From positions 1-37,307 of the forward strand of contig KZ539234.1 in the NCBI GenBank assembly GCA_000934665.2: DNA of 37,307 bases. The letters run 5' to 3'. This DNA is from Catajapyx aquilonaris. Its lineage: Eukaryota. The notes beneath the pieces were generated by a model that saw nothing but the letters and a program-made list of their open reading frames with translations, ran no database searches and had not been told where the DNA came from. Made by a program: the position numbers and the translations under genes. Below are positions 14,201 to 17,200 of the stretch, in pieces; position 1 is the first letter of the stretch; every line of letters begins with the position of its first letter.

Positions 14201-17200
14201 TGATGTATAGCCATGTGACTATTATTACAGACACTCTTCTGTGTAAATAAGAGAAATGCAAATGTTGGGAAATTTGTGATTGTGTATAAGTTTTTGCAAT
14301 AAGAAATCTGAAGTAATCACAGATATTTTCCCCTTAAATTGCATTCATACAACTGGTCCTAAGGTGTTCTAATTTATTAAGAAGCAGTATGTGCACCAGG
14401 AGAGCCATACAGCTAGGTGTCAAGCATACTGTCAATAGTTTACGAATAGATGTGACATTTTCAGTTATTAGTCAATGCAGGCAGTTACACTGCCTTGGGG
14501 CATTGTTTTGGATGTCACACAGTGCATTCTTTTAAAGATGAAGTACTGTATTCAAAAAAAGTTGAGATTAGCACACTTTTAGAGAAATAACAAAAGCAGT
14601 TTAACTGGATTTCATGGCTTTGGCGCAGAACTTGGTGACTTTCTCACATATACTACTGCAACTTTTGAAGAGAGGTTGAAAGTTATTTCAGACAATTACC
14701 AAACCTTAAATCTCCTACCAAGTCAGGGTTTCTCTCTGTTTATTATGATAAAGAAAAATTTGTTAGTGTTGTGCACATTACAACTCTTTCACATGTACTC
14801 CCATAGGTCCATAATATATTTTGAACATGTATTCTCTGGTTGCGGTTTATTGAAGGGACAAAAATAAATTTTGTAACCGATTATGCACATAATTGGTGTA
14901 CTCTACAAATAGACACTGCCGTGCTTGGTATTCATCTCTCAAGGGTTGCTAACTTGGAGTAGTTGGACCTTTACAGTATTACACCTTCGGATTAGTCTTC
15001 GGAAATGCCTTGGGGGTGCCTTAGGGGCCTTAGGGGCATGCCCTTGTCTAATCCACGTCTTTTTCTTTCCTCTCTTTCATAACATGTTCTGCTTGATCTA
15101 GCCCCAGCCATCGCCCGTCTTCTTAATAGTAAGTAGAAGGCTGAATATGAATGTTTCATGGGGTCATGTGAGGTTGTGTGTGCGCGCGTGCAAGTGTGTC
15201 TTGCAACCATCATGGAGGAAAAGTTGCATGACTCTTGCAGGGAAGGTGGAATGAATGGGATTTGTCTGGTGGCTCATGAATAACAAATGAATGCTGTATG
15301 TCAACTGTTTTCTTGGTTGGGTAGGCAAAATCATAGTAGGCAACTTAGCAAACAGTATCAGAATTGCATGATGCATATTGTTATGTATTTACGATATAGA
15401 TCTGGGTTTGTGAGTTAGGTACCAGTGGAATATTTGATGACAATTCTGGTATTTTATACCAATTTGGAAATTTTACAATTTTGTATTAGTATGTGGAAAG
15501 GGCACTTCAAAATAATTCCATATAAATATGCCATGAGTAAGGGGTTTAGGAAAATAGACATGATAGAGATGAAAACTTACATGGCAGTGATGTAGGACTA
15601 TTTCGTGCCTGAAGGATTCAGGGGGTTATTCCATGGCCCAGTGTTGAACTTCTTTTCCCACTTATGACATTACTTCTGTACCTGTGCAGGTACCCTTTGA
15701 ATGCTGTGGTTTTGTGCATGTAGCTCCTTAGTAGTGCTTAGTAATCTTTAGGTGTAGCCTGAATTTATTGAAAGAGTTAGTCTCAATAGAACAACAGCAA
15801 TTCTCTCTTGGTCTCAAGATTTGTACTAAGTTATTTTTGTCCCTAGATACATTAATACTAATCAGCTGTTTTTTGCCTTTTATGCTGACATAGCCAGCAC
15901 AAAACTGTAATAACCACACGGTAGGTTTCCCCTCATAAGGCATAAGTTACAGAGCTGTTATGTTCTTGAGTCAAGTAATTTCCAATAGTATGAACACACC
16001 CTTATTGGGGTTTACTTTGCATTGTTCTAGTTAGTAGTTTCATGAGAAGTGGGGGATCTTGAATCAAAATGTGTGTTTGACTGCATGTGTGTGTTTCTAT
16101 TCAATGTTGTGTTTGTGAATAGTCTTGTGCTATCACAGAATAGTGTTTCATTAAAAGCACTTTTTCTTGCAATGAAAGAAGGGAGTGGTGAGAGAATGAG
16201 AGTGAAAATGAGAAATGTTCCTGGCACCCTTATAATTACCCAATTTTGCAGGGTGTGTAGGATATACATACATGGTTGAGTTTGCAGGGCCATGAAAAAG
16301 TGTACTAAAGTGTTGTTTACATGCAGGGTGAGCTGGAGCAGCAACTTCTTCAGGCTAACCCAATCCTGGAAGCGTTTGGAAATGCCAAGACTGTCAAGAA
16401 TGATAATTCTTCACGATTTGTAAGAACTGAATCTTTTTAATGATGAAAAGCTGCTTATTTATCCTAATCTGACCTTTTTCTGACAGGGGAAGTTCATCCG
16501 CATCAACTTTGATGCCTCAGGGTACATCGCCGGGGCCAACATTGAGACTTATTTATTAGAGAAGTCTCGTGCCATCAGACAGGCAAAGGATGAGAGGACC
16601 TTCCACATCTTTTATCAGTTGCTCACTGGAGCTCTTCCAGAACAGAAAAGTAAGTACCTTTTTAGCAGCATTGAAAATCCTAATGCAATTGTGTACTTAA
16701 TTTCTGTCAAATTTCCAGAGGAATTTATCCTGGAGGACATGAAGACTTACACTTTCCTCACCAATGGAGCACTCCCAGTACCTGGTGTGGATGACACAGC
16801 TGAGTTCCAAAGCACCTGCAAAGCCATGAACATCATGGGAATGTCGCAGGAGGATCTTGCAGGTGCATATAGTTATAAGTGGGTGTGTATGTCATGAGAA
16901 TTTTTAGCTAACCGGATAACTTCTGCAGCTATCTTCCGCATCATCTCATCGGTGCTGATGTTCGGCAACATGAAGTTTAAGCAGGAACGGAACTCGGACC
17001 AAGCCATCCTGCCAGACAACACTGAAGCGCAGAAGGTGGCACACTTGCTAGGCCTAAGCGTGAGTGAAATGACCAAGGCCTTCTTGCGTCCACGCATCAA
17101 GGTGGGCCGTGACTATGTCAACAAAGCACAAACTAAGGAACAGGTATGGTGAAATGTAATTAAAGACACAATACTACCTACAGAATTGGACAAATTCTTC

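Follow-up and report, generated by a model that had tools for sequence, protein, structure and literature searches.

The intron that interrupts loop 1 of a non-muscle myosin II (NMII) gene in Catajapyx aquilonaris contains a frame-preserving microexon of 27 nt (microexon 1, positions 15102–15128, + strand), which would insert nine residues, PQPSPVFLI, directly before the exon that begins GELEQ. We put the probability that microexon 1 is a real exon at about 0.95, judging from the splice signals and the encoded peptide in the DNA. It is probably alternatively spliced as well, with its inclusion, the choice between a 27-nt and a 21-nt form, and its skipping all extrapolated from other species. 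Positions refer to the window, by which we mean the whole 37,307-nt stretch of DNA that was analyzed.

The host gene encodes a non-muscle myosin II

The host gene occupies 5060–32822 (+ strand) and was modeled by placing exons with tblastn and snapping their ends to AG and GT sites, which gave 27 exons and 1833 codons without a stop. Pfam recognizes Myosin_head and Myosin_tail_1 domains in the predicted protein, which is closest to annotated non-muscle heavy chains and shares 84% of its residues with the termite and cricket NMII proteins over about 1835 aa. When one motor exon was searched against the genome, 12 matches were returned; the host locus alone was close, with no second close copy among them. 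The N-terminal myosin exons (cockroach residues 1–119) gave no tblastn match in the window, where positions 1–5059 precede the first placed exon, and the contig begins within an intron. In a quick-method, midpoint-rooted tree of 24 rows, a set without a named silverfish, bristletail, dipluran, or remipede, the host protein branched next to (support 91), and not within, a group of 14 winged insects (support 100). By eye, intron 24053–29705 holds a long inverted repeat (about 25560–25710 and 26110–26270) and a shorter one (about 25800–26050), which looks like a MITE or foldback element.

The loop-1 intron (13226–16326, + strand; gene model) is 3101 nt long, is in phase 0, and contains both of the microexons described here, together with eight TGCATG hexamers found by motif scan. 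Upstream of it lies a constitutive exon (13098–13225, + strand; gene model and Pfam Myosin_head) that runs from the P-loop GESGAGKT to …KPKSTSSHT and ends in the donor ACG|GTAAGA; downstream lies the constitutive exon beginning GELEQQLL (16327–16419, + strand; tblastn and gene model).

Microexon 1 has intact splice signals and an insect-like insert peptide

An earlier note, made by reading the sequence, had proposed a hidden microexon between …STSSHT and GELEQQ, and the sequence features it listed are all present. The gene model places the flanking junctions at 13225 and 16327, with the intron in phase 0; microexon 1 is a discrete 3n exon between the P-loop exon and the GELEQ exon. A distal branch-point-like CTAAT (15048–15052, + strand), which would serve as the branch point, stands 54 nt before the exon. 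The 66 nt from 15034 to 15099 (+ strand) are free of AG and include a strong pyrimidine tract (an unbroken run of 21 at 15058–15078, scored as 20 of 20 in the intron scan) and a TGC at 15090–15092, 12 nt 5′ of the exon. The CTAG acceptor ends at 15101, the 27 in-frame nucleotides follow, and the donor ATA|GTAAGT begins at 15129 (GTAAGT at 15129–15134, + strand). A second in-frame CAG (15105–15107) is likewise present in the sequence and, by acceptor scoring, would give a candidate 21-nt variant, PSPVFLI (15108–15128, + strand).

Splice sites were scored with matrices built from the host gene's own 26 donors and 27 acceptors. The microexon 1 donor scored 6.9, mid-range within the gene. Its acceptor scored −1.2 for the 27-nt form versus 2.0 for the 21-nt form, the former lying below all constitutive acceptors of the gene (1.2–11.1, leave-one-out, n = 27). 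With so weak an acceptor and so small an exon, skipping of microexon 1 would be possible. The AG-free zone is longer than those of 26 of the 27 constitutive acceptors, which range from 14 to 77 nt. A 66-nt extension of microexon 1 to a donor at 15168 is in frame, with a weaker donor (5.5 versus 6.9), and is unsupported.

Chance occurrence was assessed with thresholds that were set after the sites had been seen. Under the strict set (donor score at least 6, AG-free zone at least 60 nt, at least 18 of 20 pyrimidines, and a CTRAY branch point), none of 1000 dinucleotide shuffles of the loop-1 intron yielded such an exon; under a looser set, equally post hoc, 45 of 1000 gave one exon and 1 of 1000 gave two. 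A scan of eight long intronic stretches returned two candidates, 15102–15128 and 15894–15920, both in the loop-1 intron, and none in the other seven. The peptide itself offers a ranking that is independent of these post hoc thresholds. Sixteen distinct insert 7-mers, drawn from 25 insect records, were compared with the 18,325 stop-free 7-mers from all introns in the window, and PSPVFLI took rank 1 with a score of 15.6, within the leave-one-out range of the 16 true inserts themselves (1.7–21.3). Exact copies of the two window insert peptides were found in none of 451 fetched myosin proteins (0/451).

Two other in-frame candidates in the loop-1 intron (13876–13926 and 15356–15409) were rejected, with short AG-free zones, no branch point, and weak scores. 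Also rejected was recursive splicing at the zero-length AG|GT at 13394/13395: 61 of 1000 shuffles contained one equally strong, the long intronic stretches of the window hold six of this kind, and no counterpart was found in the same intron of two orthologous loci (L006 and L007). Both this site and the AG|GT at 15689/15690 resemble recursive splice points, and they are neither above chance nor conserved.

Orthologous inserts recur across arthropods

Proteins were searched with the upstream exon (best 120 of 6260 matches) and with the loop region of Apolygus (best 120 of 8000). Among the matches listed, an insert of 7–9 residues occurs before GELEQ and is mostly PSPALII-like in insects, which bears out the Pro-rich, hydrophobic-ended insert that the earlier note expected in insect NMII. 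For species with at least two records, the included form was seen in 28 of 28 and the skipped form, too, in 11 of 28, in a set that consists mostly of automatic models (RefSeq isoforms) and that grew from an insert-bearing query and so favors included forms. The skipped form was found in Periplaneta, Cryptotermes, Zootermopsis, Rhodnius, Bemisia, Neocloeon, Cloeon, Vollenhovia, Ceratosolen, the spider Parasteatoda, and the scorpion Centruroides sculpturatus, a spread that takes in termites, a cockroach, bugs, mayflies, ants, and wasps besides the two chelicerates. Included forms alone were seen in 17 of the 28 species, which take in all moths, butterflies, flies, aphids, and psyllids of the set. 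The proposal of a frame-preserving, alternatively spliced loop-1 microexon conserved in insects agrees with these counts. Several marine or metagenome myosins (P0023, P0035, P0058, P0067, P0078, P0106, and others) carry loop-1 inserts that are stacked to a total of at most about 45 residues; some of them open with motifs resembling GPSF or DLSF, reminiscent of QGPSFSY in smooth-muscle myosin. A 92-aa record labeled Staphylococcus aureus (P0097) is an aphid-like myosin fragment with a loop-1 insert and is probably contamination.

At the DNA level, metagenome contigs were scanned with a degenerate pattern for microexon 1 loci. Seven loci were found, all with 24-nt segments between YAG and GTAAGT, and they represent three distinct types (APSPALII, TPSPALII, and PPCPALII). 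The donor is GTAAGT in all seven, in a scan whose pattern itself required GTRAG. The AG-free zones measure 50–98 nt, and the long zone is kept in all three types. Myosin exons were identified within five of the seven loci, the remaining two being identical to one of the five over the stretch compared, and in L006 and L007 the P-loop exon and the GELEQ exon enclose the 24-nt segment. Under the host-gene matrix the acceptors of the three types score 7.7, −3.2, and 7.2, so the weak acceptor is not universal. Alignment of the orthologous flanks at the DNA level revealed a common layout and no alignable conserved element.

In Drosophila, the zipper gene (zip, FBgn0265434) has two FlyBase-tagged microexons of 24 nt each, ME459 (2R:24998278–24998301) and ME458 (2R:24997913–24997936), both of which belong to the 283 CDS microexons recorded as alternatively spliced (PMC8042270, Tables S4, S5, and S7). 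The loop-1 exon and the tandem pair are therefore already catalogued in Drosophila, and the statement in the earlier note that zipper is alternatively spliced in this region is correct. By hand translation, ME459 encodes VPHPAVLI and ME458 encodes SSHQETFA. In that source, neither microexon is in the head-only or the body-only list, and one ME459 event differs between the sexes, with a delta PSI of 0.15 between female and male body and 0.23 between ovary and testis (PMC8042270). The description of microexon 1 as hidden holds for this genome and no further, since the orthologue is annotated in FlyBase and in many RefSeq models.

A second candidate microexon in the same intron

The earlier account of the loop-1 intron was right about the sequence features of microexon 1, but it omitted a second in-frame candidate of 27 nt, PAQNCNNHT, with the donor ACG|GTAGGT (microexon 2, 15894–15920, + strand; intron scan). 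This short 3n segment lies between microexon 1 and the GELEQ exon and is preceded by a pyrimidine tract and an AG-free zone. Its acceptor region (15858–15893, + strand; intron scan) has CTAAT at 15858 (−36), 26 nt free of AG, TGC at −20 and −11, and a final TAG. From its signals and from its location, which corresponds to that of the second cassette in insects (fly ME458), we think that 15894–15920 is probably an exon. Microexon 2 ends in …CACACG and the upstream constitutive exon in …CATACG; both endings encode His-Thr.

A second insert follows the first in 11 taxa. Isoform X6 of Rhodnius and isoforms X1 and X4 of Ceratosolen carry the second insert without the first, which argues for two independent cassettes. 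Scanned in a similar way, the five loci that reach the GELEQ exon each yielded one second acceptor, and in three of these five the resulting peptide, GSGSVTEKFA, equals the insert annotated in Temnothorax X1. The second candidate of locus L005, PNTNST (18 nt, L005:6165–6182), starts with CCA and ends ACG|GTAGGT as the window's does; that of L007, PAPTFA (18 nt), lies 1670 nt after its microexon 1. Both peptides are absent from the fetched isoform loops, and that of L005 is unlike the SNPNFA insert annotated in Periplaneta. The match of PAQNCNNHT to second insect inserts is weak, with 50 of 1726 intronic 9-mers scoring equally well. Its best match is Gryllus PNCNFA, and it ends in NHT, not in FA or FE/YE as the Asn/Ser/Thr-rich second inserts of insects do. 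The two-microexon arrangement in this genome is a hint that the pair may predate winged insects.

Alternative explanations and candidate regulators

The segment called microexon 1 could be a chance pseudo-exon or a dead relic, as it is known in C. aquilonaris from DNA alone; but with PSPVFLI first among 18,325 intronic peptides, 0 of 1000 shuffles producing a comparable exon under the strict thresholds, the signals intact, and the position the same as that of annotated insect exons, we regard this as barely credible. If the exon is real, it might still be effectively constitutive in C. aquilonaris, a minor structural element of loop 1 that is overlooked by gene predictors and has no regulatory role. 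The consensus donor would suit such an exon, as would the 17 of 28 species with included forms alone among the records seen. The skipped models in 11 of 28 species, the weak acceptor, and the listing of the fly counterpart as alternatively spliced in PMC8042270 argue against it, and together they make a constitutive exon distinctly improbable.

Two further explanations concern how a regulated microexon 1 would be controlled. The earlier note took the TGC before the acceptor as a hint of Srrm/eMIC dependence, in which case inclusion of microexon 1 would be confined to neurons and depend on the Srrm234 eMIC domain. Its cis features do match the fly eMIC code, which comprises a weak 3′ splice site, a long AG-exclusion zone, a UGC near that site, a UC-rich tract, and a CUAAY branch point (PMC8797185, section 10); the acceptor score of −1.2 lies below all 27 constitutive acceptors, and the genome encodes an SRRM_C domain above the Pfam cut-off (G000:C584:80185–80346) with a distal ARKRPIPY exon. 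However, the eMIC and neural tables of PMC8797185 contain neither of the fly zip microexons: Table S2, which takes in the 170 eMIC-dependent exons, has a 134-nt neural exon as its sole zip row, although absence from an exon table can also stem from coverage or event-type filters. The fly microexons are also missing from the head-only list of PMC8042270, and ME459 was measured in body and gonads. TGC at −25 to −3 is kept in only one of the three distinct orthologous locus types. In flies, the targets of eMIC are described as having weak donors and short introns on either side (PMC8797185), whereas here the flanking introns are 1876 and 1198 nt and the donor is GTAAGT. We therefore consider neuronal restriction through eMIC unlikely. 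In the same source, a 21-nt exon of mouse Myh11 and a 24-nt exon of mouse Myh14 are classed as ordinary alternative exons (PMC8797185); from their lengths, we take these to be the loop-1 inserts. As to tissue bias, one or both microexons might instead respond to Rbfox binding at intronic UGCAUG, as does vertebrate NMHC II-B exon N30, whose inclusion requires Fox proteins and two downstream UGCAUG (PMC3082911). The loop-1 intron has TGCATG at 13675, 13741, 13775, 13800, 15225, 15365, 15715, and 16082 (+ strand), eight copies versus 2.1 in shuffles, with 1 of 1000 shuffles reaching eight; two of them lie 97 and 237 nt after microexon 1, one lies 162 nt after microexon 2, and at least one downstream TGCATG was present in all five orthologous loci examined. 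On the other hand, the preceding 7.9-kb intron likewise has eight, the positions are not kept between species, one TGCATG per 2–5 kb is near chance, and our search found no literature linking Rbfox1 with zip. Rbfox control, which is a matter of regulation and is compatible with our best explanation, is accordingly a tentative suggestion that we rate somewhat short of even odds.

Four of the eight hexamers fall within 130 nt (13675–13805). The text of PMC5201417 and of a bioRxiv preprint (10.64898/2026.09.05.749416) contains no relevant passage, and the supplements of the preprint may bear on tissue specificity. The stretch G000:C584:79948–81900 (loci L002 and L003) corresponds to the 3′ end of Srrm234, with the SRRM_C exon, the distal ARKRPIPY exon about 1.4 kb on, and, read by eye, a proximal stop-containing last exon. 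The SRRM_C exon can join the distal exon or (by eye) the proximal one, an arrangement as in PMC8797185, where this layout is described as conserved at least in holometabolous insects. Here it is seen in an arthropod whose myosin branches outside winged insects.

Proposed splicing of loop 1 and its expected consequences

Our preferred reading is that microexon 1 is a genuine, alternatively spliced cassette. The spliceosome would assemble at its distal CTAAT and pyrimidine tract, and the first AG would then be taken to give the 27-nt exon, or sometimes the next AG to give the 21-nt exon. Inclusion of microexon 1 probably extends to many tissues and is not limited to neurons. With the second cassette (15894–15920) probably spliced independently, loops with 0, 7, 9, 16, or 18 extra residues could be made. 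By analogy with the vertebrate SM-B, B1, and C1 inserts, a longer loop 1 would speed ADP release and actin sliding. Because vertebrate inserts at the same junction speed ADP release, we lean toward expecting the included forms to be faster, lower-duty motors, in which case one gene would yield both faster motors and slower, tension-holding ones.

What is new from the window is the second candidate exon and the hint of a pair older than winged insects. For annotation, the gene model of this locus should carry one, and probably two, loop-1 microexons. More broadly, the cassette is common to arthropods from spiders and scorpions through flies, at the junction where vertebrate inserts shift ADP release several-fold. 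A wider proposal, which we think rather unlikely, makes the loop-1 cassette a speed switch of ancient bilaterian origin: the exon of arthropods and the smooth-muscle, B1, and C1 exons of vertebrates would have a common ancestor, the pair would predate winged insects, and microexon 2 would be a tissue-restricted switch driven by Rbfox or eMIC. If that were true, animals with one NMII gene would rely on splicing to make as many as six motor variants, a task for which vertebrates have paralogues. Our literature search found no kinetic or functional measurement for any arthropod loop-1 insert, with two likely papers outside its reach. Both a study of zip splicing by Mansfield et al. (1996) and an article in FASEB J about NM2 kinetics in the fly may already describe these isoforms. 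Drosophila has one NMII gene, and the function of the arthropod insert is directly testable there.

Comparison with known systems

We take the vertebrate N30 and B1 inserts to be the same exon. The vertebrate NM2B B1 (N30) insert, the NM2C C1 insert, and the 7-aa insert of smooth-muscle myosin are short alternative inserts in the 25/50-kDa loop (PMC3535348, PMC11335295), and in smooth-muscle myosin QGPSFSY stands immediately before GELE (PDB 1br2). As in the window, the vertebrate insert lies at the 25/50-kDa junction directly before GELE; the vertebrate peptides have no clear sequence likeness to PQPSPVFLI, and kinetic measurements are confined to the vertebrate forms. In human NM2C, the 8-aa C1 insert makes ADP release 3–8-fold faster and raises sliding from about 90 to 130 nm/s (PMC3122181).

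The insect and chelicerate isoform models are closer, with included and skipped forms and an insert of 7–9 aa, usually Pro-rich and with a hydrophobic end, directly before GELEQ. Examples are Periplaneta americana XP_069684966-71, Rhodnius prolixus XP_073974325-35, Zootermopsis XP_021938646/7, Centruroides sculpturatus XP_023225437/8, and Apis cerana V9IA29. They differ in being automatic models, and the window's myosin falls outside the winged-insect clade in our quick tree.

Drosophila zip differs from the window in that its microexons are 24 nt long rather than 27 (or 21) nt and are supported by RNA, whereas the window's are known from DNA alone. ME458 has little sequence likeness to microexon 2, and the fly table gives one more boundary downstream (24997697), for which no counterpart was identified in the window. 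The two systems nevertheless belong to the same gene family, each with two tandem frame-preserving microexons in one intron, and the window's microexon 1 is the orthologue of ME459 and of the insect PSPALII-type insert, as judged from sequence reading, peptide ranking, and orthologous loci: PSPVFLI matches both the fly VPHPAVLI and the dipteran GPHPALII insert before GELEQ.
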